A stretch of DNA of 64,000 bases from Eubacteriales bacterium (GTDB lineage: Bacteria; Bacillota; Clostridia; Oscillospirales; CAG-272): contig JAZNZC010000153.1 of NCBI GenBank assembly GCA_045594745.1, forward strand, positions 4,941 to 68,940, given 5' to 3'. Of the stretch, positions 17,802 to 34,748 are shown piece after piece. Within the stretch, counting starts at the first letter, position 1. Each line of letters starts with the position of its first letter. The notes under the pieces were generated by a model that was not told the DNA's origin, ran no database searches, and saw only the letters and a list, made by a program, of their open reading frames with translations. A program made the position numbers and the translations under genes.

Positions 17802-17810
17802 GATTTGCAA

Positions 17811-18905
17811 TTAAACGTTAAATCTGAAGAATACGATATCTCCATCCTGCATAATGTACTCCTTGCCTTCACTGCGGAGCACACCTGCATCCTTTGCGGC
17901 GTTCATCGAGCCGTGCTTTACAAGGTCGTCAAATGCAACGATTTCTGCACGAATAAATCCGCGCTCGATATCCGAGTGGATCTTTCCTGCTGCCTTGGGG
18001 GCCTTGGTTCCTTTGCGAATGGTCCAGGCGCGGCATTCATCGGGACCTGCGGTCAGGAAGCTGATAAGACCGAGCAGGGCATAACTTGCCTTAATGAGGC
18101 GATCCAGTCCGCTTTCCTCAATGCCGAGATCGGAGAGGAACATTTCCTTTTCTTCAGCGTCAAGCTGTGCGATCTCTGCTTCAATTTGACAACAAATGGG
18201 AATGATTTGCGAGTGCTCGCTTGCGGCGTACTCCTTGAGTGCGACGTATGCCTCATAGTCGTTGGGCTCGGATGCGGCGTAGTCCTCGTTGACGTTTGCA
18301 ACGTAAATGACGGGCTTGCGGGTGAGCAGGGGAGTGTCATACAGACAAGCTTCCTCATCGTCGGTCAGTTCCACGGTGCGCGCGCATTTACCGTCGGCAA
18401 GAGCTGCCATCAGCTTTTCAAATACGGCAAGCTCGGTAGCGTATTTCTTATCCGCCTTCATTGCTTTTTTGGTGCGGTCGATGCGACGCTCCAAAATTTC
18501 CATATCCGAGAAGATCAATTCAAGATTGATGGTCTCAAGGTCACGCATCGGGTTGATCTTGCCGTCAACGTGAATAATATTGTCATCCTCAAAGCAGCGT
18601 ACAACGTGCAAAATAGCGTCAACCTCACGGATATTGCCAAGGAATTGGTTACCAAGTCCTTCGCCTTTTGATGCGCCTTTAACAAGACCTGCAATGTCAA
18701 CAAATTCGATGACGGCAGGGGTGTACTTGTTGGGATGGTGCATATCTGCAAGGAAGTCAAGGCGTTTGTCGGGAACGGTCACCACACCCACGTTGGGTTC
18801 GATGGTGCAAAAAGGATAGTTTGCCGATTCTGCGCCTGCGTTTGTCAGCGCGTTGAAGAGCGTGCTCTTTCCCACGTTGGGAAGTCCCACGATACCAAGT
18901 TTCAT
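17811..18905 (-). CDS. ychF: Redox-regulated ATPase YchF
   Basis: [21 protein letters not shown]..., a TGS-like C-terminus and 364 aa length are all typical of YchF/OLA1. Confidence 0.95.
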
Positions 18906-18907
18906 TT
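18890..18907. repeat. Island junction direct repeat, copy 1 (att-like)
   Basis: CGATACCAAGTTTCATTT is identical to 34731-34748. It covers the ychF start codon and codons 1-5 on the minus strand. Confidence 0.85.
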
Positions 18908-18968
18908 TTATCTATTCTCCTTTAAAAGTCTTTATTTTTCAAGGGTTTTCGAGGGTACGGATAAGCGG

Positions 18969-18990
18969 TTACTCCACCATTACTCCACCA
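18969..18990. repeat. Tandem 11-bp repeat TTACTCCACCA x2 (candidate integrase arm-type sites)
   Basis: Seen directly. The core CTCCACCA recurs twice at the other island end (34570-34589) in the same orientation. Confidence 0.55.
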
Positions 18991-19045
18991 AACCGTACAC
19001 CATTAATGAGTTCTGCCGACAATCTTCACTTTTGAGGTACACCAT

Positions 19046-20260
19046 TTAAGTGAAAGCGTCTTCCCAAATCTCGTCGATTTCAGACGAATTTGCTCCCTCA
19101 AACTGTTTGATTGCGTTTGCCATAGAATCGTCCGTTACGTGAACGTATTTGTCCATCGTTGTCTGGATGCTTGCGTGACCGAGTAGCTTTTGCAGAACCT
19201 TGGGAGGCATCCCTCGTTCGATTGCTCTCGTTGCGTATGTATGACGAAGGACGTGCATCGAGAAATGCTTGATGCCTGCCTCGTCGCATAACTTGTAGAG
19301 ATGTGTGTCGTAGGAACTGTTTTTTGCCGGCGCTCCCGTCCTATAGTTTATAAACACAAGATCCCGCATCACGAGAGTGGATTTTTGTCCCGTATAACGA
19401 TCCATGTAGTCGAGCGTTTGTGACAGCATCTCCGATTCCTTTCTCTCTCCGATTTTTGAATGAACAATTTCAAGAATCGAATACGCTCGCTTTGTGAGAG
19501 GAATCGTTCGGTAGCTTTGCGGAGTTTTGGGCGGTCCTGCACGCCAAGAGCCTTGCTTGTGTCTGAACTCTAAGGTCTTGTTGACTGTAAGTGTTCGTTT
19601 CTTCCAATCAATCGCATCCCAGGTAAGACCAATCAATTCTCCCGTTCGCAAACCCGTTTCCAACAACAGCGCATACTGATAATAGTTATGAGAACGCTTT
19701 GCAACCTCCAAAAATTTTTCCTGTTCTTCAACCGTCAGAGCACGAATGTTGCTTGGATCACTAATGGGTATATTGACCTTTAACCCATCCATCGGATGCT
19801 TTGCAATCATATCGTTTAATCTTGCCGATTTGAACATAGCTCCCATTGTTGTGTAGGTTTGAAGAATGGTCGAACCCTTGTATGTATCATACATACTGTT
19901 CACAACCAGTTTGCAGTGAAGCTGTTTTACATCCGTTAACCGCAGATGTCCGATAATTGGCTTCATGTTTCGGATATATCGTTCGCGGTAGTTCCGAATT
20001 GTGTTCGGAGCTAAATCGCCAACGATCTTTGTAATCCAGAAATCAAACCATTCATCAACCGTTGTGTTAGACGGAAGGAACGCTTCCGAATGCTTGTCTG
20101 CATACCTTGCTTCTTCAAGCCAGTTTCTCGCTAATGGAAGTGCCGGAAAGCTTTTTTCGCACCGTTTTCCATATCGGTTTACAAATCTTGCGACGTATAA
20201 ACCATCTTTTCTTTGGCAGATGCCTTTGCCAATTTCTTTGCCTTTTAGATTTTTGCCCAA
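19046..20260 (-). CDS. int: Tyrosine integrase (phage-integrase family)
   Basis: 404 aa. The N-terminus resembles an arm-binding domain. The C-terminal catalytic region reads HVLRHTYATRAIE...LGHASIQTTMDKYVHV. Confidence 0.9.
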   Translation of the reverse strand: MGKNLKGKEIGKGICQRKDGLYVARFVNRYGKRCEKSFPALPLARNWLEEARYADKHSEAFLPSNTTVDEWFDFWITKIVGDLAPNTIRNYRERYIRNMKPIIGHLRLTDVKQLHCKLVVNSMYDTYKGSTILQTYTTMGAMFKSARLNDMIAKHPMDGLKVNIPISDPSNIRALTVEEQEKFLEVAKRSHNYYQYALLLETGLRTGELIGLTWDAIDWKKRTLTVNKTLEFRHKQGSWRAGPPKTPQSYRTIPLTKRAYSILEIVHSKIGERKESEMLSQTLDYMDRYTGQKSTLVMRDLVFINYRTGAPAKNSSYDTHLYKLCDEAGIKHFSMHVLRHTYATRAIERGMPPKVLQKLLGHASIQTTMDKYVHVTDDSMANAIKQFEGANSSEIDEIWEDAFT

Positions 20261-20346
20261 ATTGTACTCCTTTCTCTATCGAAAAAAGAGCCAATGCAAC
20301 AACTTATATTATATCACATTGGCATAGATTTTTCAATAGCTCTTGC

Positions 20347-20532
20347 CTAAATAATCAGCGTATTTTGAATAAAATCCTCGAACGCTTTCCGTTTGACGAG
20401 CTTCTTTGTGCCAACAAACAGAACAAACGTACAGTTTGGTTTTCGAAGCAACTGATCGATCTTGTTAATACCGATATTGCTGTACTCCGCAGCCTCTTTG
20501 ATAGTTAGCGCCGCTTTCAAGTGAATAGGCAC
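20347..20532 (-). CDS. xis: Excisionase/MerR-like HTH DNA-binding protein
   Basis: LTIKEAAEYSNIGINKIDQLLR is a helix-turn-helix of the excisionase (HTH_17) type. It lies upstream of int. The exact start is uncertain: a GTG at 20532, or an upstream non-ATG codon nearer the AGGAGG. Confidence 0.65.
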   Translation of the reverse strand: MPIHLKAALTIKEAAEYSNIGINKIDQLLRKPNCTFVLFVGTKKLVKRKAFEDFIQNTLII

Positions 20533-20568
20533 TTGGATATTGTTCTTCTCTATAATCTGCCTCCTTTC

Positions 20569-20751
20569 TTATAATTGATTAGGTGATGTTTGTGGTGGAG
20601 TATTTTGTTTGTCTGTCTCAAACTCATTCTGTATTGATAGAAAACTGTGCGCTTCACCTCCTTTCAAGTTTTCTATCACCTTACTCAGATCGAGCTTAAA
20701 ATCTGAGTCTGGAGAAAGGCAGGTTTGTTTGCCTTTCAACTGTAACCACAC
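20569..20751 (-). CDS. Hypothetical small protein (weak call)
   Basis: 60-aa GTG-initiated ORF whose stop abuts the SD of the xis-like gene. No motif recognised. Confidence 0.3.
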   Translation of the reverse strand: MWLQLKGKQTCLSPDSDFKLDLSKVIENLKGGEAHSFLSIQNEFETDKQNTPPQTSPNQL

Positions 20752-20929
20752 TTAAAACTCTCGATTTTTATACCTTTTTTCAAAAAAACTTAAATTTTTT
20801 TAATTAAACTTTTCCGTTTTTCAAAGGAGCTTTTAAGTGTCTTTACTAATACAGTGGGAATTTTGACGCAAAATCTCATCACGTTTCAAAAAATTTTTGA
20901 AAATTATTTTCGTTTCAAAAATTGCATAA

Positions 20930-20975
20930 GAAAAAGCCGTTATCGAAAGCGTTACGAAAACGCCTTGATAGCGGC
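20930..20975 (-). terminator. Rho-independent terminator (minus strand)
   Basis: GCCGTTATC...GATAGCGGC long hairpin (with inner AAGCGTT/AACGCC pairing), followed on the minus strand by TTTTTC. Confidence 0.6.
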
Positions 20976-20999
20976 TCTATCTATGCCTGCGCCAAAATG

Positions 21000-21052
21000 A
21001 AAAGTGTAAGCTAAAACTGGAAATCAACGTCCCAATCAAAGCTTACACTTTT
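21000..21052. terminator. Long-loop hairpin / bidirectional terminator-like element downstream of gajB
   Basis: 13-bp perfect stem AAAAGTGTAAGCT / AGCTTACACTTTT with a 27-nt loop. Confidence 0.45.
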
Positions 21053-21132
21053 TGACGATACTATTATAACATATTTACTTTAACTTGTCATCGGCTATTC
21101 TCCGCCTTTTTTTCGCCTTTTTTGTGACATGA

Positions 21133-22476
21133 TTAACTGGTCATTATTTTAGTAAAAAAATCTTTTATCGATGATTGATCATAAACCTTTTCGACTTCTT
21201 TGCAAATTAAAATGACAAGCTTTTCTTTTGATCTTGTCAAGGCAACATAAAGTGCGTTTTTTATTTTATTTTCCGCAGTTTTATCTAAAAAAAGATAGGG
21301 TGCTAATTCGCTCGTGAGTATGAAGAGGCATCGTTCCCCCTCTAATCCCTTTATGCTTTCAATTGAAGAAACCTCATGTTTTTTTGACGTAGTTGTTTGT
21401 TTAACTAACAGTGCATCCTTAACTTTTGCATATTGTTGCTTTGAAAGTGTTCCTGTATGTGTCTCCAAACGATTTATTATTTGTTTTTCGGGTTTGCCTT
21501 GATTATAGAGATCAATCATTCCCTTGGTGTAATTGTATGATCGAATTTCTCGAACTTGTACATCAGGCTCAATCTCACACAAAATAGTATAGATTTCGTA
21601 ATATAGTGTATCAAACCTTGATGGTCTTTCCAACACATTGCTATGTGTTTCGAACAGATCGTTCTTTTGATAAATGTATTTCAAATCAAATTGAGATGAT
21701 AACAGAGTGTCTATATCACAAGAACTCTCAAATATAACCTCTATACTACCGCCGGTTTTTTCAGAGGTTTGGCGTTCATTTTTGTGAATCAAGGAATTTG
21801 TGATTTTAAGATGTTTAGCTGGACAACGATGGCAAGTTGCATCATAAATAACCGATTGTGGTCTTGCATTGATTAATTCTCTAAAATAACCATACCCGCG
21901 AATATCTTGTTTTGGATCGCCTTTAAGTACTACCTCAATTCCTTCAGAATCAAGTTTTTCAAAAATTTCCTTCATATGTCCATCAATATCTTGAGCTTCA
22001 TCAACAAATATCGTTTGGCAATATGATTTGAAGGTTCCCAAAACAATGGATCTGTAATCCTTTTGAAGTTTTTTATCAGTACTCTTTTTCACTACAACCC
22101 ATTTAGCTTTTTCAGGTATCGCCTCTATATGAAGTACATTTCTTCTATCCAATTCTGCGAGTTTGTAATTTTTGAATTCTGGCTTATCGGGAAGTTCTAT
22201 AGTGGAAATTGAACCATAGTGTTTGTTGTAAATTACATAGTAGTAAGGGGATACAAATTCTTGGAACAAAAAGGAATGAATTGTACATACAATGATGTTT
22301 TCAGGAATCACGTCATAATGGGACAATAATTTATCCTTAATAGACTTTACTGCATTGTTAGTAAATGCAACACAAAATATTTTTTTATTTGAAGAATTTT
22401 GTTCGTGTTTTTCAATGATTTCTTTAGCAAGTCCTGTTGTTTTTCCTGCACCTGCCCCAGCAACATTAATTATCAT
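21133..22476 (-). CDS. gajB: Gabija GajB, UvrD/Rep-like SF1 helicase
   Basis: Walker A AGAGKTTG at the N-terminus, FVDEAQDI (motif II) and VALTRSKEKL (motif VI). The start overlaps the gajA 3' end by 11 nt. About 447 aa. Confidence 0.8.
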   Translation of the reverse strand: MIINVAGAGAGKTTGLAKEIIEKHEQNSSNKKIFCVAFTNNAVKSIKDKLLSHYDVIPENIIVCTIHSFLFQEFVSPYYYVIYNKHYGSISTIELPDKPEFKNYKLAELDRRNVLHIEAIPEKAKWVVVKKSTDKKLQKDYRSIVLGTFKSYCQTIFVDEAQDIDGHMKEIFEKLDSEGIEVVLKGDPKQDIRGYGYFRELINARPQSVIYDATCHRCPAKHLKITNSLIHKNERQTSEKTGGSIEVIFESSCDIDTLLSSQFDLKYIYQKNDLFETHSNVLERPSRFDTLYYEIYTILCEIEPDVQVREIRSYNYTKGMIDLYNQGKPEKQIINRLETHTGTLSKQQYAKVKDALLVKQTTTSKKHEVSSIESIKGLEGERCLFILTSELAPYLFLDKTAENKIKNALYVALTRSKEKLVILICKEVEKVYDQSSIKDFFTKIMTS

Positions 22477-24220
22477 CTTTTTTACCTGCCATAAAATCAA
22501 ATATCGCCTGTATATGTGCTGGCATCTGCAATCCAACTAAACTTCCATTAGCAATATCGTGGCTAATAGTAAGCATAACTTCTGCTTTTTGAGATTTCCA
22601 CTTGTCAGACAACTGGTCTTGTGTTAATCCTGTCCACCCAAATTGAGTTCCATATTTACTCTGCAATAAGGTATAATTGCTTCCAGTTTTTACAATTTCC
22701 GGTTCCAATGTGTAATTTTTTGTTGTTGTAACAAGAATTGATTGGCACGAATTATATTTCTCGTGATTCGCTTGTGCGGCGGGTTGATTATCATAATCTC
22801 TAACGATTCCTAAACGTTTGTGGCAATTACTGTTTGTTTTCTGCCATATTTCAATGATTTTTGTAAATCCTTTATGAAATGATAGAACATCAATATCACC
22901 GAGTGTGCTTTGAGAAGCTTGGTATGCCTTAATAAATAATTCTTCAGTTATACCTTCTACCAATATACAACGATGAGACAAGAACAATTTGTAGATATCG
23001 GTATTAGGATTTTTGGAAAGATAATTGCGTTCTTCATCATTAAGTTCTGTTGAAAGTGCATACGCTTCTCCTGCATCCAACACCACTACACTTTCCAAGG
23101 CGTGTTTATTTAAAAATTCTGTGCTATGGGAAGAAAAAATGAGCTGAACACTTTTGTTGTCTTTTGTCAAAGCATTAATAAAACTGCACATCAATCGAAT
23201 ATTATTGATGCACAAATGTGCTTCGGGCTCTTCCATAATCAAAACATTTATTACGGTATCACATTGTTTTTCTTTCCACGAATTTAACAACACGAGTAAT
23301 AATATTAAATTTCTATACCCCAATCCTTGTAATGACAAGCTTTCATCCGCGTACCCGAGTTTTACTCCATTTAAGATAGTTGACAACGGCGGCATATTGG
23401 GCAAAATGCTAATACTTGAAATAAAATCCTTTGCTCCAGGAATCGAACTATAATCCTGCCAATTGAGCACACTATCAACATCTCCGGCCTTTTTTACTTC
23501 GTCGAAAAAAGTTTGATATTGCTTTTCTATATGAACTAAATTTTCGTTGCTATATCGAGACTCTAATAGTTTTACAAGAGATTTATATCCAATCTTGCTG
23601 TTATCATATGAAAAACCATCTCTTTCTGCGGGGAGCATTGTATATTTAAAATATCTCAATACATCATATGCAACCTTCGCTTCTTTTTCAGGGACCACTA
23701 TTGAGTATGTGTACAAACTAATCGGTAGAAGATTACGCTTAACATCTGAAATATTTACAGATGAATCCGATAGAATCTCTTTTACAGATTCCAAAAGCTT
23801 AGACGGCATATCTACGGTAAAACGATATAATAGCCCATATTGAATATTGTTATTAGCTATTTTGAAAGCTATATCTTTTACATAATACAACTCATCCGTT
23901 TCAGGTGTAAAGTGAATTTCCACAGAAACAACAGGAATGCTTTTTATAAAATCATCTAACAAAAGGGAGCCTTCAACAATTTGATCTCGATGCGTTTCCA
24001 AATATTTAAAATACTCGTTTCTCGCTTTTGAATTGATGTCATCCCAGGTTAAATGTTTAGAAATCGTGTTATCCTCGGAGTAAAGTGGAAGAGACAATGC
24101 ACGCAATATATTGCTTTTACCACTATTGTTTTCTCCAATGAAAATAGTAGTTCCTTCAGATTCAAAAGATGTTCCCTCAATATTTCGATAATTTTTTATT
24201 GTGATTTCAGAAATCTTCAT
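22466..24220 (-). CDS. gajA: Gabija GajA, OLD-family ATPase-Toprim nuclease
   Basis: GENNSGKSN Walker A, LIMEEPEAHL Walker B/ABC-like, and a C-terminal Toprim (ILVEGITEE ... VRDYDN). About 584 aa from MKISEITIKNYRN with a GAGGG SD. Paired with a UvrD-like helicase. Confidence 0.8.
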   Translation of the reverse strand: MKISEITIKNYRNIEGTSFESEGTTIFIGENNSGKSNILRALSLPLYSEDNTISKHLTWDDINSKARNEYFKYLETHRDQIVEGSLLLDDFIKSIPVVSVEIHFTPETDELYYVKDIAFKIANNNIQYGLLYRFTVDMPSKLLESVKEILSDSSVNISDVKRNLLPISLYTYSIVVPEKEAKVAYDVLRYFKYTMLPAERDGFSYDNSKIGYKSLVKLLESRYSNENLVHIEKQYQTFFDEVKKAGDVDSVLNWQDYSSIPGAKDFISSISILPNMPPLSTILNGVKLGYADESLSLQGLGYRNLILLLVLLNSWKEKQCDTVINVLIMEEPEAHLCINNIRLMCSFINALTKDNKSVQLIFSSHSTEFLNKHALESVVVLDAGEAYALSTELNDEERNYLSKNPNTDIYKLFLSHRCILVEGITEELFIKAYQASQSTLGDIDVLSFHKGFTKIIEIWQKTNSNCHKRLGIVRDYDNQPAAQANHEKYNSCQSILVTTTKNYTLEPEIVKTGSNYTLLQSKYGTQFGWTGLTQDQLSDKWKSQKAEVMLTISHDIANGSLVGLQMPAHIQAIFDFMAGKKDDN

Positions 24221-24306
24221 AATTGCCCTCTGAGTTGTTATTCCAATTAGTCTGTTTTTTGCGGGAGAATATAATATTTTGTATTCTCCCACAAGTCAAT
24301 TGATTT

Positions 24307-27162
24307 TTACTCCGCGATTCCATCCGTATCAAAGATGTGATCCAGCTCGTCCGAAGTCATAGCGCGAAGCACTTTGTCGCGAACGACCATATCGGTCAGA
24401 TCCAATCTAGCGAACTTACTTCCGCTGGCATTGTTGTTCTTGTGAATCAACTGAATTCTGCCAATGCGGTTCTCATTTCTTGCATACTCTGCAAGAGCTT
24501 TTGCCTTGGGAAGATTATCCGCATACTGATTTCCGTGGGGCTCAAGAATGTCTACGACATACTCAGCATAAGGATCGCTACGCACTACCAAGAAATCTGG
24601 ATAGAATGCTTTCTTTTCTCCACCGATTTCATAAGGCAAGCAGAGCGCCCACGTGCCTCTTGAAGGATTACGTAACCAGCAAACAAAATCGTTTCTGCGT
24701 GCTTCCTCCTCTATAAGAGAGCTTTCCCACCCGTTCAGCTTGATTTTTGCGATTCCGGTTTCGGGAGATGCAAGCAGATGGTTATCGTATTCAGTTCCTT
24801 CGGGATCTTCACGAACACAAATATTTTCGGGAATCGCGAAAATCTGCTCGCTGATTACATCACTATCCGCCATAATATCGTGATATTTTTTCTTGCAGGA
24901 ATCCGACTTACTAACAATGGCGATACGATACTTTTTGCTGAACTCGTTCAGCTTTTTCTTCGCATATTCACCAAGCTTTGTCCTACAATCATCATCGTTG
25001 GCAAAGAGCACACAGTCAATTTTGTGAGCATTGGGATCGTCTTCATCGTAATACAAATATCCGTATTTGCTTGGGAAGCCATAGCGTCCAAGCTTGGCAT
25101 CTGCATCTCTTACACGCCTGTCAAGGTCGTTCTCAGACATCATAGTAAGATCGTCAAAGTAATTATCAACCAAAGCTTGTCCGAATGGATCAAATACCTG
25201 AATCGATAATTTGAATTCCAATACTTGTTTTGCGAGTTCCTCATATTTACCTGTGCGGTGAAGCTCATCAACGTATGCACGAATCAAACCGAGAACGTCA
25301 TCAATAACTTCATCACGCGCATTTTGGTAAATAAGGTTATGTGTAAGAAGATCAGCGAGGTCAAGAAGCGATTTGAGGTAATCATTGATGCGGTCATGAC
25401 GGATAAAATACGTTAAATAACCTTGTGCATTGATGAAATCAATGATCTCAACGCGATCAATATCCGTTTGAATTACAAGTTGCCTGCCGGGTGCGGGCGG
25501 TGTAAACAACGGAGTAGTCGGCGTGCTTGGCGCGGGGACGGTAACGGTCATCGGAGGATTATATTCCGGTGCATTGTTTTCTCCTACAGGAGCAGAATGA
25601 GTATGGGAAGGAACAGAAGGATTATCGCTTGTTGGTGCAGTGGTGACAGGTGTCACAGAGCTTGTATCGGCTGAAACGGGTGCATCAAACATGCTCGTTT
25701 GTCCGGGAACGCCAACCGGCTGGCGCGTGTTTCTCGGCGTGTGAACCGTCCAAGTAACGTAGGTAGGTTCTTCAAGCGATTCGCCGTTGATTTCCGTAGG
25801 AATATCTCCGCCCTCATTGCTTTGCAATTCTTCTACTACGTGCTTAACAGTTTCCTTGTTGAAGTAAGGCAAATAGAGCTTTACGTCGTTCAAAAACTCA
25901 TCGCGCTGTACGCGCATCTGCAAGGGCGTTCTAACCATTCTACCGAGCAACTGTGCGATATAGGTGGGATCATTGCGGACAGCAAAGGACATCATGGTCT
26001 CTGCTCTGGGGCAATCCCATCCCGTTGACAGTGCTTCCTTGAAGAAAACAACCTTGATCTTGTGATCGTCAGCAATTTCAGATGCCTTTATGTGCGGAAT
26101 TTTAAGACCGTTTAATTCAACAGTCGTATTTTCACCAAAACAATGAACAACCTCACCCGGCGCAAATCGTTTCCCGAGCTTTTCTTCGATTTTGGCAAGA
26201 ACGTCTTCAAGGTTGGTATCCGACAACGCAGCGCCGCTTCCTTTACGAACCTGAACTACGAAAACAGGATCAACGTTTGCATAGTGCTGCTCAGTCGTAT
26301 ACTGCTTCCATCTCAGACACTTTTTCTGCCATTCTTCCACGGCGGCTTCCAAAAGCACCATATCGTTATTCTTTTCGGGATCCTCGGGATAAGTGATCGC
26401 AATTCTATCCTTGAGAAGACCGGAGCTGCGAACGTCATCGGCAGTAATGACATACTTTTGGAGTCCTACGTTCGTTATATTGCCAACCAACGTGTTAAAT
26501 CTATCTGCTGTGGCACTGATACCGAGAATTACGGGCATTGAACGCATCGTGCGCTTAATACCGTTTTCCATATATTCATAGCCCTTGATAAAGCGCTGCA
26601 TAATGGTTGTGTCGGTACCTGCTTCTCGTTTGCTTTTTGCTCCACGGTGTGCCTCATCAATGATAAAATACAAGTGATCTGATTTGTTCTGAATCGTATT
26701 ATCGAGCGTTTCCCAAATCGTATACTGACGGGAATCGGAATGCTGACTCAGTTTGGCACTACGGCTGATTTTCTGTGTGTTAAGAAAATAAATATTGCCG
26801 TCCTCAAGCATTTCCATATCAAAGGAATCCTCGGAGATTGTAACACACTGACCGAAACGAAGTTTGCTCGTTTTTAGCTCAATCTTTGCCTTGGACTGCT
26901 CGTTCAATTCCGGAGAATCTGACAGCCAAACAAAGATAGCCTCGGGTTGCTCGGAATAAGTCGTTCCATCAGGCATCGTTGTGCCAAAGTAAATGTTCTC
27001 AATCAATGCTGCGGCAATAATGGTTTTACCGGCACCGGTGGGCGCTTGCAGAGAAACGACCTGAGTTTTATGCCTGCGCTGATATGTACCAAGAGCTTCC
27101 GCAATATCAAGACGCAACTCTTTTACGGCTTTTTCCTGAAAGGATATTAAATCTACCTTCAT
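24307..27162 (-). CDS. res: Type III restriction enzyme Res-like subunit (SF2 helicase plus C-terminal PD-(D/E)xK-like nuclease)
   Basis: APTGAGKT (motif I), IIDEAHRG (DEAH), STGWDCPRAE (motif VI), and C-terminal YPDFLVV...DILEPHG. 4-nt overlap with the upstream mod gene. Confidence 0.8.
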   Translation of the reverse strand: MKVDLISFQEKAVKELRLDIAEALGTYQRRHKTQVVSLQAPTGAGKTIIAAALIENIYFGTTMPDGTTYSEQPEAIFVWLSDSPELNEQSKAKIELKTSKLRFGQCVTISEDSFDMEMLEDGNIYFLNTQKISRSAKLSQHSDSRQYTIWETLDNTIQNKSDHLYFIIDEAHRGAKSKREAGTDTTIMQRFIKGYEYMENGIKRTMRSMPVILGISATADRFNTLVGNITNVGLQKYVITADDVRSSGLLKDRIAITYPEDPEKNNDMVLLEAAVEEWQKKCLRWKQYTTEQHYANVDPVFVVQVRKGSGAALSDTNLEDVLAKIEEKLGKRFAPGEVVHCFGENTTVELNGLKIPHIKASEIADDHKIKVVFFKEALSTGWDCPRAETMMSFAVRNDPTYIAQLLGRMVRTPLQMRVQRDEFLNDVKLYLPYFNKETVKHVVEELQSNEGGDIPTEINGESLEEPTYVTWTVHTPRNTRQPVGVPGQTSMFDAPVSADTSSVTPVTTAPTSDNPSVPSHTHSAPVGENNAPEYNPPMTVTVPAPSTPTTPLFTPPAPGRQLVIQTDIDRVEIIDFINAQGYLTYFIRHDRINDYLKSLLDLADLLTHNLIYQNARDEVIDDVLGLIRAYVDELHRTGKYEELAKQVLEFKLSIQVFDPFGQALVDNYFDDLTMMSENDLDRRVRDADAKLGRYGFPSKYGYLYYDEDDPNAHKIDCVLFANDDDCRTKLGEYAKKKLNEFSKKYRIAIVSKSDSCKKKYHDIMADSDVISEQIFAIPENICVREDPEGTEYDNHLLASPETGIAKIKLNGWESSLIEEEARRNDFVCWLRNPSRGTWALCLPYEIGGEKKAFYPDFLVVRSDPYAEYVVDILEPHGNQYADNLPKAKALAEYARNENRIGRIQLIHKNNNASGSKFARLDLTDMVVRDKVLRAMTSDELDHIFDTDGIAE

Positions 27163-29357
27163 CTGCTGTTCCTCCCTGCATTTATTCTAAAGTTATCGAG
27201 ATAATCTCGGTATAATTGATATGTTTTCTTACCTTCAAGAGCTTTTGTCATAGAAACAAATCCTGCCTCATAATCGGTAACAAGGTAAACAACCTCAATT
27301 TCGGGATGCTCGTCCAACTGATTCTTGAACTCTGCAAAAGCATTCTCGTTATTCAAAATTGCCATTTTGTTTTTAGGCAGAATGAGTATGTCAGGTATAT
27401 TTTTGTCAATCGTGGGACACTCACCGACTGCCCCCGCCTTCATCCACAAAGTAGATAACAGCTCTTTGAACTGCATACCAAGTGAAACCTTGGTTTTATC
27501 AAGAAATCCGAGTTTGAAGAAGACGGCATTTGCATGAAAGCCATCGGATCGTTTGATTTCGGCCAATTGGGGAAGTTTTTGTACTTCTTTTTTAATATAT
27601 ATTTTTTTTGAAGTGGGCTTTCCAGTCTTTTTAGAAACGATAGTATCCTCATCGTCTATTATATATTCTTCTTCGATAACACCATAATCGCCATCTAAGG
27701 GATTGCCGTTCACATCTTTGCCAAGAATACTGCAAACTGTCCGAGGCCATGTTACATATCGCGCTATACCCTTATTTTCCCATTCTTCGTCTCCTTGCTT
27801 AATACCACGTGCTTCAAATTCATTTTTTTCAGCTTCACTGATCTCATTGTTTGTTATCATTATACAACGACGTTTACCACCATCTTCCGCATTAAGAAGA
27901 TTAGTGGCGTGAAGTGTTGTACCCGAACCGGCAAAGAAATCAACAATCAAAGCATTGGGTTTGTTGGCGGTTGCATAATACAAACAATCTTTAACTGCAT
28001 ACAACGATTTTGGATAAGAAAATCTGTTTGGTGTAAGAATTGACTTTACAATGTTTGAGCCAAACCACTGAGCATCATGAGTGTGCTTGTTCCAATTCGT
28101 TGTTGGAGGGATTTCTTTGCTTTCATAATAAAATGCATTAACACTGCCATCATCGCAAATGTTTTTAATAAAGGCTTTTCCGGATTCAATGTCAGAAATT
28201 ATTCCTCCAGTTAGGTATGAGATAACATATTTCTGCGGTTTATTGGGAGTGTGTTTTCCAACTCTTATATATCCTTTATTTAAACGAGCGAGAAATTCTT
28301 CTTTCACGCATCCCCACATCATTTCCATCCCATTATCGCGAATTGGAAAAACTGCAGTACACCCAGCAGGAGCAACAACATCACACATTTTGTCCACTCC
28401 AAAAATAAGGGGATCTCCTACCGAATGGATCTTCTTTGTACTATCATCAACAAATACAGGATAGAACTGCTTTTTTGTTTTATTCCATGTGTTTGTTGGT
28501 CCAGATCTACGTAAAGTATCCCAAACCACTGGCGTATTTTGGCCTTCGCTTCCATCCAAAGCAATAGAAGCAGAACCTATTCTGACAAAGAACAAATATT
28601 CATCGGTTCGAGAAAACTCATATTTGCGTCCTGTACCTGCACGATTAATAACACTACTGACCATTTGAATATTTGCATATGAAAACATTTCTTCAAGCAA
28701 ACATCCAAGATGCAAATATTCTTTTTCATCAATTGTAACAATTAAAATAGAATCATAGGGGTTAAGCAAACGTTTGGCTATTTCTAACCGCTTTTGCATA
28801 AAAGATAACCATTTACTATGCTTATATTCATCATTTTCATCTACATATTTGTTATTATACTTCCAATCTGTTGCGCCAGAGTTATAAGGGGGATCTATAT
28901 AAATACAATCAACTTTACCCGCATAAAGATATTCGAGAAGCTGGAGCGCGTGATAATTATCCGCCTCAATAAGAGTATGCCACAGATCGCTATCGGGAGC
29001 ATTGCAAACACTATCCAACAGCTTGAGACAAGGATAGATTGCCTCGCCAAACTCGGCTGTAACAACCAGATCTTCAACGGGATATTCTATTGCTGTATTG
29101 CCGCTTTTCGGCATACACCAAGCCTTACCGTTCTCAATCTTTAATACCTTGAAGGTAGTGTTGACCGATCCAGACTTCAACGAAACGGTTGCCCCCTTCT
29201 TAACAGGAATGTCGTAAAGGGGAGTACATTCGGGCAAATGCTCCTCAAATACCAAACCGAATTTCTTCTGCTTGGCAAGCTTATTTGCCGCTTCCTGAAT
29301 CTGCGCACGAAGCTCGGGATTTTCTATTTTTGCAATCAATTCATTTAATGCTGCCAT
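27159..29357 (-). CDS. mod: Beta-class N6-adenine/N4-cytosine DNA methyltransferase, type III Mod-like
   Basis: IYIDPPYNSG (motif IV) precedes VDFFAGSGTT (motif I), which is the beta-class order typical of type III Mod. Translationally coupled to res. Confidence 0.85.
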   Translation of the reverse strand: MAALNELIAKIENPELRAQIQEAANKLAKQKKFGLVFEEHLPECTPLYDIPVKKGATVSLKSGSVNTTFKVLKIENGKAWCMPKSGNTAIEYPVEDLVVTAEFGEAIYPCLKLLDSVCNAPDSDLWHTLIEADNYHALQLLEYLYAGKVDCIYIDPPYNSGATDWKYNNKYVDENDEYKHSKWLSFMQKRLEIAKRLLNPYDSILIVTIDEKEYLHLGCLLEEMFSYANIQMVSSVINRAGTGRKYEFSRTDEYLFFVRIGSASIALDGSEGQNTPVVWDTLRRSGPTNTWNKTKKQFYPVFVDDSTKKIHSVGDPLIFGVDKMCDVVAPAGCTAVFPIRDNGMEMMWGCVKEEFLARLNKGYIRVGKHTPNKPQKYVISYLTGGIISDIESGKAFIKNICDDGSVNAFYYESKEIPPTTNWNKHTHDAQWFGSNIVKSILTPNRFSYPKSLYAVKDCLYYATANKPNALIVDFFAGSGTTLHATNLLNAEDGGKRRCIMITNNEISEAEKNEFEARGIKQGDEEWENKGIARYVTWPRTVCSILGKDVNGNPLDGDYGVIEEEYIIDDEDTIVSKKTGKPTSKKIYIKKEVQKLPQLAEIKRSDGFHANAVFFKLGFLDKTKVSLGMQFKELLSTLWMKAGAVGECPTIDKNIPDILILPKNKMAILNNENAFAEFKNQLDEHPEIEVVYLVTDYEAGFVSMTKALEGKKTYQLYRDYLDNFRINAGRNSR

Positions 29358-29667: not shown

Positions 29668-31053
29668 TCAAATCATTTTCTCATACTCAACCAGCGTTAC
29701 GTTACCCATTTCGGTTGTTTTGTCAATGCAGCCCTTGGTAAAGCCGGATTTGGCGAAGAGGTAGTAATGCACGTTCTTGTAGTGGAAGAGTTTGCTACGT
29801 TCAACGAGCAGATCGAGCACGCCGACGTCAACCTTTTCGTTTGTCCACTTGCACTCGCCAAAGAGGGCGGTGTTTTTATCGGCTTCGCCCATAATATCGA
29901 TCTCGGTCTGGGACTTAGATTTCGAATCGTTACCCCACCAACGTCCGAGAGAGGTAAACTCAATGGGACATTTGCCCGAGAGAAGCTGCTTCCAGAGATA
30001 CTGCTTGCAGATCTCCTCGAACACTCTGCCCATATACTCGGACAGATGCGGCTCGATGCGCTTATATGCGAGATCGGATGCGCCGCGCGCGATGATGGAA
30101 TTGTTTTCGGGCACGAAGCGATACCAGAAGCGGAACATATTATCCTCAACCGAATAGATCGACTTGCGGGATGCCTTTTCACCGTAGGGCGTTTCCTTTT
30201 GAACGATGCCGAGAGAGAGCAGATTTTTTAGATAGATAGAGCATACGTTGGTATCCTCGCCTACCTTGCTGGAAATCTCGGACATACGCGACGCACCCGT
30301 TGCAATAGCGGTGATGATCGCGTTATAGATCGCCGGCTCGCGCACCTCCTGCTTGAGCAGATTGGTCGTTTCCTCAAACAAGGGAGAGGTCGGGTTCAGA
30401 TAGGTATTCTTGATATTTTCCTCGATGCTGAGCTTATCGTCGATCTGCAAGAGGTATTGCGGAGTTCCGCCGACGATACCGTAAATGAGGGCTTTGTCCT
30501 CGCTGGAAGCGTTGGGGAAATAACGGCAGGTTTCCTCAAAATCGAAGGGGTTGATCTTCATCTGCGCCGTCTTTCTTCCGTAAAGAGGGGCTTTGTAGGA
30601 AAGCACGTAATCCTCCATAAAGGACATGGACGAGCCGCAAAGAATGAGCATCAGCTTGGAGGTATCCTTATATTTATCGATCAGAAGCTGGAGCGTGGAT
30701 GCAAGGCTCTTTGAGGAACGGGCAACGTAAGGATACTCGTCGATTGCAAGCACGATCCTCTCATTCTCAGCCATCTTGAAAACGTACTCCAAAGCCGCCT
30801 GGAATGAAGCGAAAGAGGTTTCAAGCGAGAACCCCGTACCGTATTCAAGTATGCTCTTTGAAAAGTTATCAAGATTTTGCTTGGCATTGCTCTCAACGCC
30901 CATAAAATATATCGCTTTTTTGTCACGAACAAACTCGTTGATCAGCGCCGTCTTACCGACACGGCGGCGACCGTAAATAACCGCAAATTCAAATTTATCC
31001 GAAGCGTACAGCCTATTCAAAGCCGTCAGCTCACGTTCTCTGCCAATAAACAT
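29668..31053 (-). CDS. ATP-binding protein: archaeal-type ATPase (ATPase_2-like) N-domain plus DUF234-type PD-(D/E)xK C-domain
   Basis: FIGRERELTALNRLY...VIYGRRRVGKTAL (Walker A), LAIDEYPY (Walker B), and C-terminal ...GRWWG...EIDIMGE...GECKW (D/ExK-like). Start placed at MFIGRE with an AGGAGG SD. Confidence 0.75.
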   Translation of the reverse strand: MFIGRERELTALNRLYASDKFEFAVIYGRRRVGKTALINEFVRDKKAIYFMGVESNAKQNLDNFSKSILEYGTGFSLETSFASFQAALEYVFKMAENERIVLAIDEYPYVARSSKSLASTLQLLIDKYKDTSKLMLILCGSSMSFMEDYVLSYKAPLYGRKTAQMKINPFDFEETCRYFPNASSEDKALIYGIVGGTPQYLLQIDDKLSIEENIKNTYLNPTSPLFEETTNLLKQEVREPAIYNAIITAIATGASRMSEISSKVGEDTNVCSIYLKNLLSLGIVQKETPYGEKASRKSIYSVEDNMFRFWYRFVPENNSIIARGASDLAYKRIEPHLSEYMGRVFEEICKQYLWKQLLSGKCPIEFTSLGRWWGNDSKSKSQTEIDIMGEADKNTALFGECKWTNEKVDVGVLDLLVERSKLFHYKNVHYYLFAKSGFTKGCIDKTTEMGNVTLVEYEKMI

Positions 31054-31153
31054 AAAAATATGCCTCCTTGTATCAGTTGACACTATTATAGCACACATTT
31101 TCAGTTTAGTCAAGTACGATTTGGTAAATTGTGATTATATATTTTTGAATTAC

Positions 31154-31351: not shown

Positions 31352-31372
31352 TAAGGTAATCTGTTAAAGAAG

Positions 31373-32218
31373 GTGATTTATGATTTGAAGAAAGTAAAAA
31401 AATCGATACAGGCAATTCTTATAACTTTTGTTGTAGGCGCTCTTGTTCCGAGAATTTTCAGTTTATCAGATTTTGGACTAGTCAATAAATTGGCTTGGAA
31501 AGGTCTGTTGGGAGCAGCTTTTGGAATTGCAACATTTCTTGTTGGCATTTTATATTCGTGCCATTTAATCTCTGGAAAAAGATCCGGAGGAAAAACACGA
31601 ATCGGAATATATATTTCTATCGTACTGATTCTATGTTGTGCTGCCCCAATGCTTGCACTTGTCGTTGCTACGATGTCTAAAATCGTTGCTGTAATTTTAG
31701 CCTTCGCAATGATGTGCGGCTTAACGTATTTGATTTGCAAGCTTATTAAATGGTTATCTAAAAAGAAACAACCCGAGGCTCGTTCTATAGGGAGCTCAGC
31801 TAAAAATCAAGAAACAAAATCACATGACAACACAAGTATAGAAAACAATATTCAAAACACGGTTGTTTCCGGTGATGTTAAATCAGAGATTATTGAATCT
31901 TGCACCATCGAAAAACCGACAATTACCGAACAATCGACCGGTGAATGTGAAGAAGTCACGGGGCTTCAACCAGCTGTAGCACATCTCGAAAACTTTGATG
32001 CTTGTTTTACCTTGTATGAGCTTGCAATGTATCACGATTTCGAATCTGGTTGTATGACGGTAACGAACGACGAGAATCCAGATTTGAAGTGGGTTAAAAT
32101 TTACAAGCCATGTTATGGCAACGGAAAGTTTTATGGATATGTAATGATGAACAATGCGCATCATTCGGTTAATGGTGAAATATTTTTTGCAAACAGACCA
32201 ATTTGGTATTTGGTATGA
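31373..32218 (+). CDS. Hypothetical membrane protein (about 4 TM helices plus a C-terminal soluble domain)
   Basis: 281-aa ORF, AT-rich, the only plus-strand gene in the island. The start is uncertain: GTG at 31373 abuts the SD, and TTG at 31385 is an alternative. Confidence 0.55.
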   Translation: MIYDLKKVKKSIQAILITFVVGALVPRIFSLSDFGLVNKLAWKGLLGAAFGIATFLVGILYSCHLISGKRSGGKTRIGIYISIVLILCCAAPMLALVVATMSKIVAVILAFAMMCGLTYLICKLIKWLSKKKQPEARSIGSSAKNQETKSHDNTSIENNIQNTVVSGDVKSEIIESCTIEKPTITEQSTGECEEVTGLQPAVAHLENFDACFTLYELAMYHDFESGCMTVTNDENPDLKWVKIYKPCYGNGKFYGYVMMNNAHHSVNGEIFFANRPIWYLV

Positions 32219-32250
32219 AGCAATAAATTACTTTCTGGATAATTTAAACG

Positions 32251-32296: not shown

Positions 32297-32298
32297 AT

Positions 32299-33465
32299 TT
32301 AGTTATTCAGCACTTCTTTTTCTACGAACGCAAACGAAATTTGTTTGATGATAGCATTGCTGCCTTCCATATACTTTTGCACGAACTTTGCCATCCAATC
32401 GTAACAGATGATTTCGCCAAGCACATCCGGATACAACGCTAACGCTTCCTTAAATCGTTTCAGTCTGGTAAGATCACAATCGAGAAGTGATAAAACGTGT
32501 TTCTTTCCTTCTTCTGAGGTGACCAAAGCATCGTAATCAAATCGACCACACCCAAAGGTGCGCTCCTCGTCATCAAACAACAGTTGCAAAAGCTCATCTT
32601 TCCAATTCGGTATAGTAAGGAATTTCAAAAATCGTGCACCATACTCATTTAACGGAACATAGTGAATGTAGAAAAACTGACTATCAAATCGATATTCCTT
32701 ACGGCTGATCTTCTTGGTTGATTCAATCGAGCCCATTGCGATCTCTGGTGAAACCCCGAAAATGATTGCCGAATGGATACGGTCAACGCTATACGCCGCA
32801 TTAGCCTCATAAATAAATTCAAGATTTATTCTCGCCTTCATCTCACCCTCGCCCGACCATTTCATCACGGAATCGCGTGTATTGAATACGCAATAACAAT
32901 CGTTACCGGCGAATAGCCCACCGACCATTCGTGTAAAATTCGTTTTGTTTGCCTCGCTGTCCTCTCCGCCGATCTGCTTGATTGCGCGACTTGTGAGAAA
33001 GAAAGGAGAGCCCGGGGCGATCAGGTATGCACGTCTGCCGATTTTGAGTTTGGGCAGATTATGCGGCAATACTTCGATCCCCGCGTCCATACAGACTGCC
33101 AGGGCTTCACCGACTCGGTGGTTTCGGTCAAGGTGTGATGCGTTCATCGGTAGGCTATAACCGTGAGTGATGCTTTCGTAATACTCACCCTCGCCAAGCC
33201 AAGTGAGTATGGGAAGCGCCCCTGCATAGAGGCGAATGGTTTTCGTTTTGCTTCTGCCGCAGAGATTGAATAGCTTCGGAAGCGATAACGTTTCGCCCGT
33301 CACGCTATTCTTCACCGTCAGCGGCGACAGCCCATCCTTTACCAGCTTGCGATACATACGCTTGTTGCCGAGAAGATGCAAGGATTTCACGGGATATTCA
33401 CCCGCAACGGATAATAGGCACATCAAACGATAGAGCTGACTGCCCGGTTTCATTGTTTTCATCAT
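32299..33465 (-). CDS. Hypothetical 388-aa protein (possible N-terminal winged-helix domain); function unknown
   Basis: Strong SD (AGGAGG, 8-nt spacer) and host-like composition. The N-terminus LYRLMCLLSVAGEYPVKSLHLLG looks wHTH-like. I recognise no catalytic motif. Confidence 0.6.
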   Translation of the reverse strand: MMKTMKPGSQLYRLMCLLSVAGEYPVKSLHLLGNKRMYRKLVKDGLSPLTVKNSVTGETLSLPKLFNLCGRSKTKTIRLYAGALPILTWLGEGEYYESITHGYSLPMNASHLDRNHRVGEALAVCMDAGIEVLPHNLPKLKIGRRAYLIAPGSPFFLTSRAIKQIGGEDSEANKTNFTRMVGGLFAGNDCYCVFNTRDSVMKWSGEGEMKARINLEFIYEANAAYSVDRIHSAIIFGVSPEIAMGSIESTKKISRKEYRFDSQFFYIHYVPLNEYGARFLKFLTIPNWKDELLQLLFDDEERTFGCGRFDYDALVTSEEGKKHVLSLLDCDLTRLKRFKEALALYPDVLGEIICYDWMAKFVQKYMEGSNAIIKQISFAFVEKEVLNN

Positions 33466-33653
33466 ATAGTTTTCCTCCTTATATGTAAGAATTTTTTAGA
33501 ATTGTGTCATCGGGAGAATTGCGACATGATGACTGCTCTCAATGTCGCAACGCTCCCACGAAAATCTCCCGAAAAGTCAGGTTTTATAAGGCTTTTTCGA
33601 GCTTTCGGGAGGTGTAAGAAATTTTTAGCGAAAATCGGTTGTTTTTACATCTG

Positions 33654-34358
33654 TCAGATTATGCTTTCAGGCGGATTTTCAAGCAGAAAAACGCCATTTT
33701 CGGGGAACGTAGGCTCTGCATTCTGCCACGTTTGAAAGTCCGATTTCGGTACAATATAGACCTCTGTGCGATCCTCGTCGCCTGCCGCAGTACAATAGAA
33801 ATGCTCGCAAACTCGAGGACTATCGTCAGGCAGAACGTACATCGCAACAGCATCGGTCGTCAGATTAATTTCGATGTTGTCATGATCGCGCCGCTGACGT
33901 TCCTTGAAATCCCGATTGTAAACGTGACGGTAGATCAGCACGCAATCACGGTAACGGACGATTGGCTTTCCTCGGAAGAACCGTTCAAGCGCGGGATAGA
34001 GGATTCCTCGTATGTAGTCCACAGAGCCTTTCTGCTTTTTAGGGAGCAGTGCGGGAATCTGCATACAGAACCAGCCGTCTTTCGTAAAACCGATTTTCAC
34101 AGGCACAACCTCAAGCATAGTGTCCTCAATCATTTGGAATGCGTTTGGTCTTCCGAAGTAGGCGGGCATCATACGGCAGATGAGTGTGGTACGCTCGGTT
34201 TTCTCATAGGCACGCAGAGCATACTCATAGGCGCGTTCAGCATTGTCGCTTGCAAATGCCTCCTCTGCCATAGCGAGCCAACTCAAAAACTCGGCATTTT
34301 GTTTCTTTGCTTTTCTAAGATGATCCATAAACGGATGTGTTGTTTTTGTTTGTTTCAT
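33654..34358 (-). CDS. RusA-like endodeoxyribonuclease-domain protein with an N-terminal helical extension
   Basis: The C-terminal half contains RQRRDHDNIEINLTTDAVAMYVLPDDSPRV. This parallels the RusA core as I recall it: [34 protein letters not shown] SD. Confidence 0.55.
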   Translation of the reverse strand: MKQTKTTHPFMDHLRKAKKQNAEFLSWLAMAEEAFASDNAERAYEYALRAYEKTERTTLICRMMPAYFGRPNAFQMIEDTMLEVVPVKIGFTKDGWFCMQIPALLPKKQKGSVDYIRGILYPALERFFRGKPIVRYRDCVLIYRHVYNRDFKERQRRDHDNIEINLTTDAVAMYVLPDDSPRVCEHFYCTAAGDEDRTEVYIVPKSDFQTWQNAEPTFPENGVFLLENPPESII

Positions 34359-34380
34359 AAATTTTCTCCTTTCTAAATCA

Positions 34381-34451
34381 AAAAATGGTAAAAGAAAAAG
34401 CGTGCATCAAAAGCAAAACACATAATGTGTTAAGCTCTGATACACGCTTTT
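34381..34451 (-). terminator. Long hairpin plus U-tract immediately upstream of the RusA-like gene SD (insulator terminator or leader attenuator)
   Basis: AAAAGCGTGCATCA ... TGATACACGCTTTT (one mismatch; inner AACACA/TGTGTT), followed on the minus strand by a T-rich run that reaches the SD. Confidence 0.45.
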
Positions 34452-34569
34452 AGCGTCTTATACAGATCTATTGAGTTTTGAGACAAGACTGTTTTTGTTG
34501 CATCGTTCCTTTTTCGGATGTTTTTTTCGGCACACCATTTTGCCGTGTTTTTAGGCGTTTTTTCGCCTG

Positions 34570-34589
34570 CTCCACCAAATCCTCCACCA
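34570..34589. repeat. CTCCACCA x2 (candidate arm-type sites, right end of island)
   Basis: GCTCCACCAAATCCTCCACCAAAACCG mirrors the left-end sequence TTACTCCACCATTACTCCACCAAACCG. Confidence 0.5.
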
Positions 34590-34677
34590 AAACCGCATTT
34601 ACTTGCATAAATTTTTATGGAGTTTTATGATCGAGTGGAATTTTTGAACGTCCGAAGATCCCTTGTGCCATAAGGCT

Positions 34678-34746
34678 TTATCGACTTTTATGGAGATATA
34701 TTTTAGTGCTGAAATTTGGTCGGTCATCACCGATACCAAGTTTCAT
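34678..34746 (-). pseudogene. Displaced ychF 5' remnant (MKLGI + 17 unrelated codons)
   Basis: ATG AAA CTT GGT ATC is identical to the ychF start. It then diverges and stops after 22 codons. It is preceded by its own SD and promoter. Confidence 0.7.
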
Positions 34747-34748
34747 TT
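34731..34748. repeat. Island junction direct repeat, copy 2 (att-like)
   Basis: CGATACCAAGTTTCATTT is identical to 18890-18907. Confidence 0.85.

Follow-up and report, generated by a model that had tools for sequence, protein, structure and literature searches.

The window analysed here, a 64,000-nucleotide stretch of DNA from an Eubacteriales bacterium (Clostridia; Oscillospirales; CAG-272; assembly GCA_045594745.1, contig JAZNZC010000153.1, positions 4,941 to 68,940 of the forward strand), contains an island of 15.8 kb lodged at the start codon of ychF. Two perfect copies of an 18-bp direct repeat bound the island, the left one being the beginning of ychF itself, and the genes nearest to ychF encode a tyrosine integrase and an excisionase. 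The features that define the locus, with positions counted from the first letter of the window, are these:

17811..18905, minus strand: ychF, intact, 364 aa, its first 16 nt lying inside the attL core
18890..18907: attL core, left-hand copy of the 18-bp direct repeat (AAATGAAACTTGGTATCG on the minus strand)
18908..18945, minus strand: ychF leader supplied by the island (CCCTTGAAAAATAAAGACTTTTAAAGGAGAATAGATAA), which holds a Shine-Dalgarno sequence
19046..20260, minus strand: tyrosine integrase gene (int), 404 aa, transcribed towards ychF and 140 bp from attL
20347..20532, minus strand: excisionase gene (xis), 61 aa, Pfam Tn916-Xis PF09035 (6e-30), adjoining int
34678..34746, minus strand: remnant open reading frame (ORF), the ychF start and 4 codons fused to island DNA, 22 codons in all and then a stop
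34731..34748: attR core, right-hand copy of the same repeat
34749..34809, minus strand: displaced native ychF promoter, leader and Shine-Dalgarno sequence, pointing into the island
35196..35888, plus strand: host response regulator gene (Pfam Response_reg and Trans_reg_C), divergent from the native ychF promoter and the synteny anchor for empty sites

In the window the 18-mer CGATACCAAGTTTCATTT is present exactly twice, at 18890-18907 and 34731-34748. The 64 kb contain no third copy at up to 2 mismatches, and none is expected by chance, as 0 of 100 shuffled controls gave any 18-mer match. Read on the minus strand, the left copy (AA-ATG-AAA-CTT-GGT-ATC-G) comprises 2 nt of the leader, the start codon of ychF, 4 more codons and 1 nt. 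The original prediction of a perfect 18-bp repeat bounding a 15.8-kb island at the ychF start is therefore confirmed as an observation, with one correction of content: the repeat does cover the start codon, but what follows is only 4 further codons and a single base, not codons 1-5. The coding sequence of ychF is unaltered by the island, and its product retains the Pfam domains YchF-GTPase_C (5.3e-39) and MMR_HSR1 (4.8e-24). At the far end lies the native promoter, TTGCAA-17-TATAAT with a TG extension (34809..34781, minus strand), followed by an AAAGGAG Shine-Dalgarno sequence before the right repeat copy; the reading frame that opens there encodes MKLGIGDDRPNFSTKIYLHKSR* and ends, just as the description of a near-consensus promoter and ribosome-binding site leading to a 22-codon dead end had it. 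The remnant peptide is not conserved, since in another occupied locus (L004) it ends after 8 codons. Counting one repeat copy, the integrated segment spans 18908-34748, or 15,841 bp, with a GC content of 0.406, lower than the 0.475-0.478 of the flanks. The 64-kb window has no tRNA gene.

That the island arrived by site-specific integration into the 5' end of ychF, as was proposed from the sequence, is supported by empty sites in relatives and by the recurrence of the same ends in other hosts. The comparison with related genomes, a check suggested together with the prediction, was made by querying YchF against one genome per species and then running tblastn on the returned loci (L-numbers denote the comparison loci and contigs). 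Five close relatives (L006, L007, L008, L055 and L057, all metagenome-assembled genomes, or MAGs, labelled Eubacteriales), with YchF proteins 96-98% identical to that of the window, are free of the island; each has a single copy of the core, and the native promoter and leader are joined straight to GTGGGACTTCCC of ychF. Their upstream sequence (tattgcaaaa...tatgaTATAAT...ggataaaaagacaaaggagcacaaaacaaATGAAACTTGGTATCG) is the one found to the right of 34748 in the window, while GTGGGACTTCCC is the one found to the left of 18890. The response regulator, 94-97% identical, stands ~450 bp upstream of ychF with nothing between, and once the island is taken out of the window, the remaining sequence can be aligned with each of the five over the junction in one collinear block (81-87% nucleotide identity). 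A second core copy or a remnant in island-free genomes, which had been named beforehand as evidence against integration, is absent from all five. More widely, the 16-nt core is exact in 24 of the 80 species representatives.

Other candidates for inserted DNA in and around this locus were set aside. At seven loci with a gap of 1.4-7.5 kb between the response regulator and ychF (L017, L020, L024, L028, L030, L031 and L037), the large ORFs tested encode host proteins, namely a leucine-rich repeat protein, clostripain, an oxidoreductase, an MBOAT protein, mannitol dehydrogenase and a lipase (7 of 8 loci were covered; L052, with the smallest gap, was left out). Likewise, a tyrosine recombinase gene 1.4 kb beyond ychF (15396..16400, minus strand) is an Xer-like host gene, 76-94% identical in the island-free L006, L009 and L055, and not a part of the island. 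A dip in GC content at 40-42 kb was similarly rejected as an island: it contains genes for an NMN transporter and for a RadA-like ATPase, and just past it lies an amidase gene.

The integrase itself appears complete. Pfam identifies Phage_integrase (5.6e-30) and Phage_int_SAM_3 domains, the closest solved relative is the Tn1549 integrase (Int; 6EN0, E 2e-20), and the full catalytic set R-K-H-R-H-Y is present, with R205, K245, H336, R339, H362 and Y372 aligning with 6EN0. The island proteins were compared with Pfam, PADLOC and NCBIfam, and the integrase and the unannotated ORFs were also scanned against PHROGs. Every island gene lies on the ychF strand except one of 281 codons. Beyond the recombination genes, the content of the island is as follows:

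18908..21130, minus strand: conserved left recombination module, comprising the leader, arm sites, int, xis and ~600 bp beyond xis that hold no recognisable gene
21133..24292, minus strand: Gabija, with gajB and gajA adjacent
21133..22536, minus strand: gajB, probable start ~22476 (PADLOC GajB 1.5e-130; Pfam UvrD-helicase)
22466..24292, minus strand: gajA, probable start ~24220 (PADLOC GajA 1.7e-197; Pfam AAA_15)
24307..29357, minus strand: type III restriction-modification (R-M) system, adjacent res and mod genes with a 4-nt overlap
24307..27162, minus strand: res (Pfam ResIII 2.7e-14; PADLOC REase_III 1.1e-8)
27159..29357, minus strand: mod (Pfam N6_N4_Mtase; PADLOC MTase_III 4.4e-138)
29668..31113, minus strand: ATPase_2 and DUF234 protein (Pfam), a PDC-S27 candidate defence gene (PADLOC 2.9e-65)
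31373..32218, plus strand: 281-aa predicted membrane protein, conserved in L102 and L103
32299..33465, minus strand: 388-aa conserved protein of the right module
33654..34358, minus strand: DUF6100 protein (Pfam 2e-22), the first gene downstream of attR and in the same position in L102 and L103

The Pfam and PADLOC matches thus agree with the expectation of an integrase and an Xis-like gene at the ychF-proximal end with defence cargo beyond. Within Gabija, which has a GC content of 0.336, the OLD-like_TOPRIM match of gajA is weak (E 0.0033, below the Pfam cutoff). A 103-aa ORF separates the type III R-M system from the ATPase_2/DUF234 gene. The 281-aa protein has no Pfam, PHROG, NCBIfam or PADLOC match. 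Homologues of the 388-aa protein number 149 and lack Pfam domains throughout; AlphaFold models the protein with confidence (pLDDT 86.5, pTM 0.89), and the model has no significant Foldseek match in PDB or BFVD. An assignment of the DUF6100 protein as RusA-like is no more than a lead: residues 153-163, ERQRRDHDNIE, an 11-residue RRDxDN match, resemble the RRRDLDN motif of RusA resolvase, and BLASTP gave E 0.043 against a RusA sequence, but Pfam and the PDB sequence search give no support. Exact-sequence look-ups of the window's YchF and DUF6100 proteins matched no record. Further, no type IV secretion gene (VirB4 or coupling protein) and no relaxase is matched in the window island by Pfam, NCBIfam or PHROGs.

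The same island ends are found in other hosts. A related host (L102, GCA_054275115.1) has at the same locus a sister island of 11.5 kb with a repeat pair of its own. This island matches the window across a right module, from window position 34748 to 29679, at 93% and across a left module, from 21129 to 17976, at 90%; its cargo (L102 positions 13786-18002) is a different type III R-M system, and Gabija is absent. In L103 the same right end stands beside an unrelated host leader, with homology from 34746, and the right end is in all common to three different host leaders, the homology beginning exactly at 34746/34748 in L102 and L103. In yet another host, L004 has an attR whose core is the same. 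The left module is shared with L086-L089 as well as L102 (87-98%), and its homology breaks at window positions 21129-21134; the integrases of L086-L089 are 99% identical to that of the window, and in L086 and L088, where the right end was not recovered, the adjoining upstream genes encode type I R-M specificity subunits. The right module starts at ~29679 and comprises the PDC-S27 gene, which is its first gene and lies within the block 93% identical to L102, the 281-aa gene, the 388-aa gene and DUF6100; the 388-aa gene again lies beside the DUF6100 and 281-aa genes in L102 and L103. Because homology stops at fixed boundaries and the cargo between them differs, the island is modular, with two conserved ends around an exchangeable cargo bay that here holds Gabija and the type III R-M system. 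Sister islands in different hosts are 89-95% identical, which implies recent movement.

These comparisons bear directly on the idea that the island is ancestral at the locus and that the relatives with empty sites lost it by deletion between the repeats. Precise excision would give exactly the arrangement seen in them. Yet only 4 of the 80 species representatives are occupied, the occupied sites differ in cargo and integrase subtype, the GC content of the island is 7 points below that of its flanks, and the same ends stand beside unrelated host leaders. Ancestral presence is thus extremely improbable, and loss by excision, even if true, would be the work of the same site-specific mechanism.

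The integrase belongs to a large family with a single target. Homologues at E<=1e-20 number 6339, of which one cluster at 99% identity has 214 members, and wherever the contig is long enough ychF follows immediately, in the order xis-int-ychF, irrespective of the host genes further downstream. The linked cases (L001, L002, L003, L005, L010, L023, L032, L033, L087-L089 and L104-L109) have integrases 62-99% identical. All informative members of the family are located either at the start of ychF or at a junction of tandem elements that has the same core, and low target specificity was not encountered among them. The cargo of these relatives varies: type II-A Cas9, AbiH and a D5_N/DUF5906 primase in L002; STM3845 with RVT_1, Fic and FtsK_SpoIIIE in L004 (~8.4 kb, with its own attR); and Viral_Rep with FtsK_SpoIIIE, RVT_1 and PvuRts1I/SRA in L104. 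In L002 positions 562-5226 hold a complete-looking type II-A CRISPR-Cas locus (Cas9, a 79-aa ORF and Csn2) together with AbiH. A metagenome scan with a pattern of the core and the right arm recovered a further ychF-start element, on contigs mostly labelled human gut metagenome, that encodes DUF6017/HTH_36, DUF3801, a VirD4-type coupling protein, TrbL_2 and PrgI. This VirD4/TrbL_2/PrgI-bearing element is a conjugative one, and it is joined to native ychF leaders in L091, L094, L095, L096 and L101. The element, seen at positions 608-7584 of L095 (also in L094, L096, L099 and L100), is a possible helper for the small islands. What the searches have uncovered is a large, previously undescribed family of elements, all using the ychF start codon.

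In four contigs, L098 (5988), L099 (core 768, ychF orientation), L100 (6182) and L110 (1691), a left arm is followed by the core and then by the right end of another element. An int gene precedes the left arm in L098, L099 and L110, that of L099 being partial and seemingly frameshifted. Because the arm repeats differ on the two sides of the core, L100 and L110 are taken to hold different elements in tandem array; L098 and L099 may be either tandems or circular junctions.

A phage origin was also considered. The island might be a prophage remnant or a phage satellite, of the kind called phage-inducible chromosomal islands (PICI), akin to the ychF-adjacent element of pneumococci and unrelated to conjugation. 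The placing of int beside ychF is that of the pneumococcal satellite prophage (PMC6375853, PMC10383233), and the D5_N/DUF5906 primase of L002 is of a sort common in satellites. Against this, of the proteins scanned against PHROGs (the integrase and those of the unannotated ORFs) only the integrase finds a match, its best match among 50,697 phage records is 32% identical, and viral contigs scanned for the pattern of the core and right arm yielded just one chance hit, within a 949-aa ORF. Moreover, relatives at the same site carry the VirD4/TrbL/PrgI conjugation module or a mobilisation pair of Rep and FtsK. A phage or satellite origin is accordingly very unlikely. A decayed and immobile remnant, with a fossil repeat and a non-functional int and xis, would account for the want of a circular junction for the window element and of recognised transfer genes in its island; it is quite unlikely in view of the perfect repeats, the full-length Int with all its catalytic residues, the 99% identity of that Int to the cluster of 214 sequences beside different cargo, and the close identity of the sister islands across hosts.

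The ends of the island also have the layout of a recombination site, with two further features:

18972..18990, minus strand: left-arm tandem arm-type repeats, TGGTGGAG twice with an 11-nt period, 72-83 nt upstream of the attL core
34570..34589, minus strand: right-arm tandem arm-type repeats, TGGTGGAG twice, 142-161 nt from the attR core

The four repeats share one orientation, the right-arm pair having the core motif of the left arm, and the right arm has in addition a third, diverged site at ~208-218 nt from the core. Relatives have tandem repeats at the same positions with other sequences, for example ATGGTACAGTA, ATGGCGTAAAA and TGGGTGTAAAA. From their placing, the repeats are putative arm-type sites, expected to be read by the variable N-terminal domain of the integrase. 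An alignment of the right arms of five elements gives a fixed layout: the core at 1-18, TTTCA at 35-39, a ATAAAAGTCnATAAAnCC box at 57-76, tandem repeats at ~158-180 and the third repeat at ~208-218. The invariant TTTCA at 35-39 is in all five attP right arms the inverted partner of TGAAA at 4-8. In the window this inverted repeat, TGAAA-N26-TTTCA (34710-34745, minus strand), has its centre 3-4 nt past the 18-bp identity. The half-sites of Int, and perhaps the crossover, could be off-centre relative to the repeat. The crossover would fall within or next to the 18-bp identity, a finer placement being beyond what sequence alone can give. Polymorphisms of the core were tried as a means of locating it and abandoned: the same island has different core variants in different hosts, and these variants were possibly inherited from earlier hosts.

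The island end supplies CCCTTGAAAAATAAAGACTTTTAAAGGAGAATAGATAAAAATG, and its CTTGAAA...AAGGAGA core is kept at the int-proximal end of most family members. That the island provides a replacement upstream region is shown by this conservation of a leader with a Shine-Dalgarno sequence. As an observation apart, the native ychF leaders of the island-free L011-L014 contain CTTGAAAATAAAGGAGA, ~40 nt upstream of ychF, as does the island leader, and the attP-side leader looks derived from, or a mimic of, a host ychF leader. The promoter of int is defined by one further feature:

20281..20336, minus strand: int promoter region, TTGAAA-17-TATAAT with a TG extension (20336..20308), overlapping a hairpin

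This promoter is 11/12 to consensus, and TTGAAA-17-TGnTATAAT is kept in 11 of the 11 family members examined. The hairpin, of 12 bp with a U-run at ~20290-20323 and a fold z of -3.0, resembles a terminator for xis. The -10 box lies within its 5' half, a sequence likewise kept in 11 family members, and transcripts from the int promoter would therefore lack the terminator. The 140-nt spacer between int and ychF holds no terminator-like site and no stable fold (z = 0.12). Because the int promoter is near-consensus and conserved, and because this spacer is without a terminator or stable fold, read-through from the int promoter would be the likeliest source of ychF mRNA.

A different source would be a small promoter at the island end itself, a weak promoter-like match of TTGAAA-17-GAGAAT (18942..18914, minus strand) whose transcript would be leaderless or nearly so. 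The match scores 9/12, and the TTGAAA box is kept at the island end in most family members. The spacing from TTGAAA to the GAGAAT-like box, however, ranges from 6 to 18 nt across the family, so that conservation of the match as a promoter is improbable; an mRNA beginning 7 nt past GAGAAT would lack the conserved Shine-Dalgarno sequence; and CTTGAAAATAAAGGAGA occurs in the native leaders of L011-L014 as well, well downstream of their promoters. Transcription of ychF from this match instead of from int is accordingly doubtful.

Taken together, the evidence makes it highly probable (roughly 0.88) that the segment 18908-34748 is an integrative element with site specificity for the ychF start, which regenerates ychF, displaces the native promoter and carries modular defence cargo, and the interpretation given with the original prediction is in this sense supported. 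In the proposed mechanism, the Tn1549/Tn916-related integrase and the Tn916-type Xis would recombine attP with attB, the latter being the ychF start codon and first codons, ATGAAACTTGGTATCG, which encode MKLGI just before the P-loop. An attP with the same 18 bp would regenerate an intact ychF on integration, the new upstream region being the element-borne leader with its Shine-Dalgarno sequence. The native promoter and leader are shifted by 15.8 kb and now face DUF6100 and the 388-aa gene at the distal end, while ychF would most probably be read through from the near-consensus int promoter. If the element still excises, the junction of the excised form is predicted to be ...GGAGAATAGATAAAAATGAAACTTGGTATCGGTGATGACCGACC... 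and the restored attB ...GGAGCACAAAACAAATGAAACTTGGTATCGTGGGACTTCCC.... The element has no recognisable conjugation or phage genes and would probably depend on the help of other elements for transfer, possibly of conjugative ones that share the site.

Several points weigh against this account or some part of it. The empty sites are those of related species, at ~85% nucleotide identity, and not of the same species. Neither an excised circle nor an attP junction of the window element was found, the junctions in L098, L099, L100 and L110 belonging to other elements. With no relaxase or coupling protein recognised in the window island, mobility beyond integration and excision is conjectural. The inverted repeat centred just outside the 18-bp identity would also fit a mismatch-tolerant crossover like that of Tn916. 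Finally, the claims about transcription come from consensus scans only: the TTGAAA-17-GAGAAT match could contribute, and long-range read-through from the native promoter formally stands as another candidate source of ychF mRNA. No minus-strand terminator was detected in the stretch from that promoter through the right arm towards DUF6100.

A more speculative extension is that the family acts as a promoter-swap device. When integrated, the element would place ychF, which encodes a universally conserved stress ATPase, under the int promoter and the element-borne leader and let the strong native promoter drive DUF6100 and the 388-aa gene, and excision would restore native control. This is an unlikely reading; if it is true, such an element couples its own state to the translational stress physiology of its host, as at pneumococcal ychF, across many gut Clostridia. 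Promoter displacement at a conserved stress and translation factor is an example, open to experiment, of a host gene rewired by a mobile element. The findings also define a precise and conserved docking site, the ychF start codon, with an integrase family of thousands of metagenomic homologues. Islands of this kind are not easily spotted in MAGs, and their limits can be drawn there directly from the boundaries, the layout of the arm sites and the cargo bay. More broadly, the family moves defence systems among uncultured gut Clostridia, including Gabija, type I and type III R-M, Cas9, reverse transcriptases and PDC-S27.

Among the closest known systems is that of Streptococcus pneumoniae, in which a defective or satellite prophage lies between dnaN and ychF (the PPH005 site; PhiBM6001.4) with int beside ychF; it has short direct repeats and excises as a circle, and when it integrates the promoter of ychF is rearranged and expression of the gene falls (PMC6375853; PMC8637289; PMC10383233). 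The window element is likewise an integrase element immediately upstream of ychF with int adjoining. The pneumococcal att site is intergenic (14-26 bp, CCCTTTTTGTGTTA), whereas that of the window lies in the start codon, and the pneumococcal element is phage-related and resides in Streptococcus, whereas the window integrase, in a Clostridia host, reaches only 32% identity with its best phage match. The ICEs (integrative and conjugative elements) and IMEs (integrative and mobilizable elements) of Firmicutes with site-specific tyrosine integrases also regenerate the end of their target gene; their described targets are mostly the 3' ends of tRNA or ribosomal-protein genes, the 5' ends of protein genes being rare (ebfC; PMC5357655). 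Unlike them, the window element has no recognised relaxase or coupling protein. The site had been judged uncommon enough to document, a judgement that stands for the exact ychF site and less so for its kind, as both a protein-gene 5'-end att (PMC5357655) and a ychF-adjacent element (PMC6375853) are already described. A Faecalibacterium survey describes tandem arrays at one att site and integrase-only 'MGEs' (mobile genetic elements) without conjugation genes (PMC12084326), and in these respects the ychF family, with its tandem arrays and an integrase-only member, is similar. In its main text, neither that survey (PMC12084326) nor the streptococcal one (PMC5357655) mentions ychF. In Actinomycetota, pipolins are defence-carrying integrative elements reported at ychF, a non-tRNA site (PMC11551731); they use large serine recombinases and piPolB in a different phylum, and the position of their att site is not comparable to that of the window.

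The likeness to Tn916 and Tn1549 is one of machinery: a Tn916-family Xis, a closest solved integrase in that of Tn1549, and arm-type repeats near both ends. Tn916 and Tn1549 themselves use many AT-rich insertion sites, and their coupling sequences vary. The ychF family, in contrast, is strictly site-specific, the similarity to Tn1549 Int is modest (E 2e-20), and the window element has no conjugation module. A parallel for the effect on the host gene is SpyCIM1 of S. pyogenes, a small integrase-bearing island at the 5' end of mutL that separates the gene from its promoter and whose growth-phase-dependent excision switches gene expression. The SpyCIM1 switch is dynamic; in the window island it is promoter displacement alone that is shown. 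Literature searches brought up no account of an element with a tyrosine integrase at the start codon of ychF. The present element is thus a new integration specificity and a large family within a known kind of element, and the mechanism is not new. The ychF locus is now seen to be targeted by three unrelated recombinase systems, namely the ychF-start family, the pneumococcal satellite prophage and the pipolins with their large serine recombinases, and this convergence suggests that it is a favoured insertion point.

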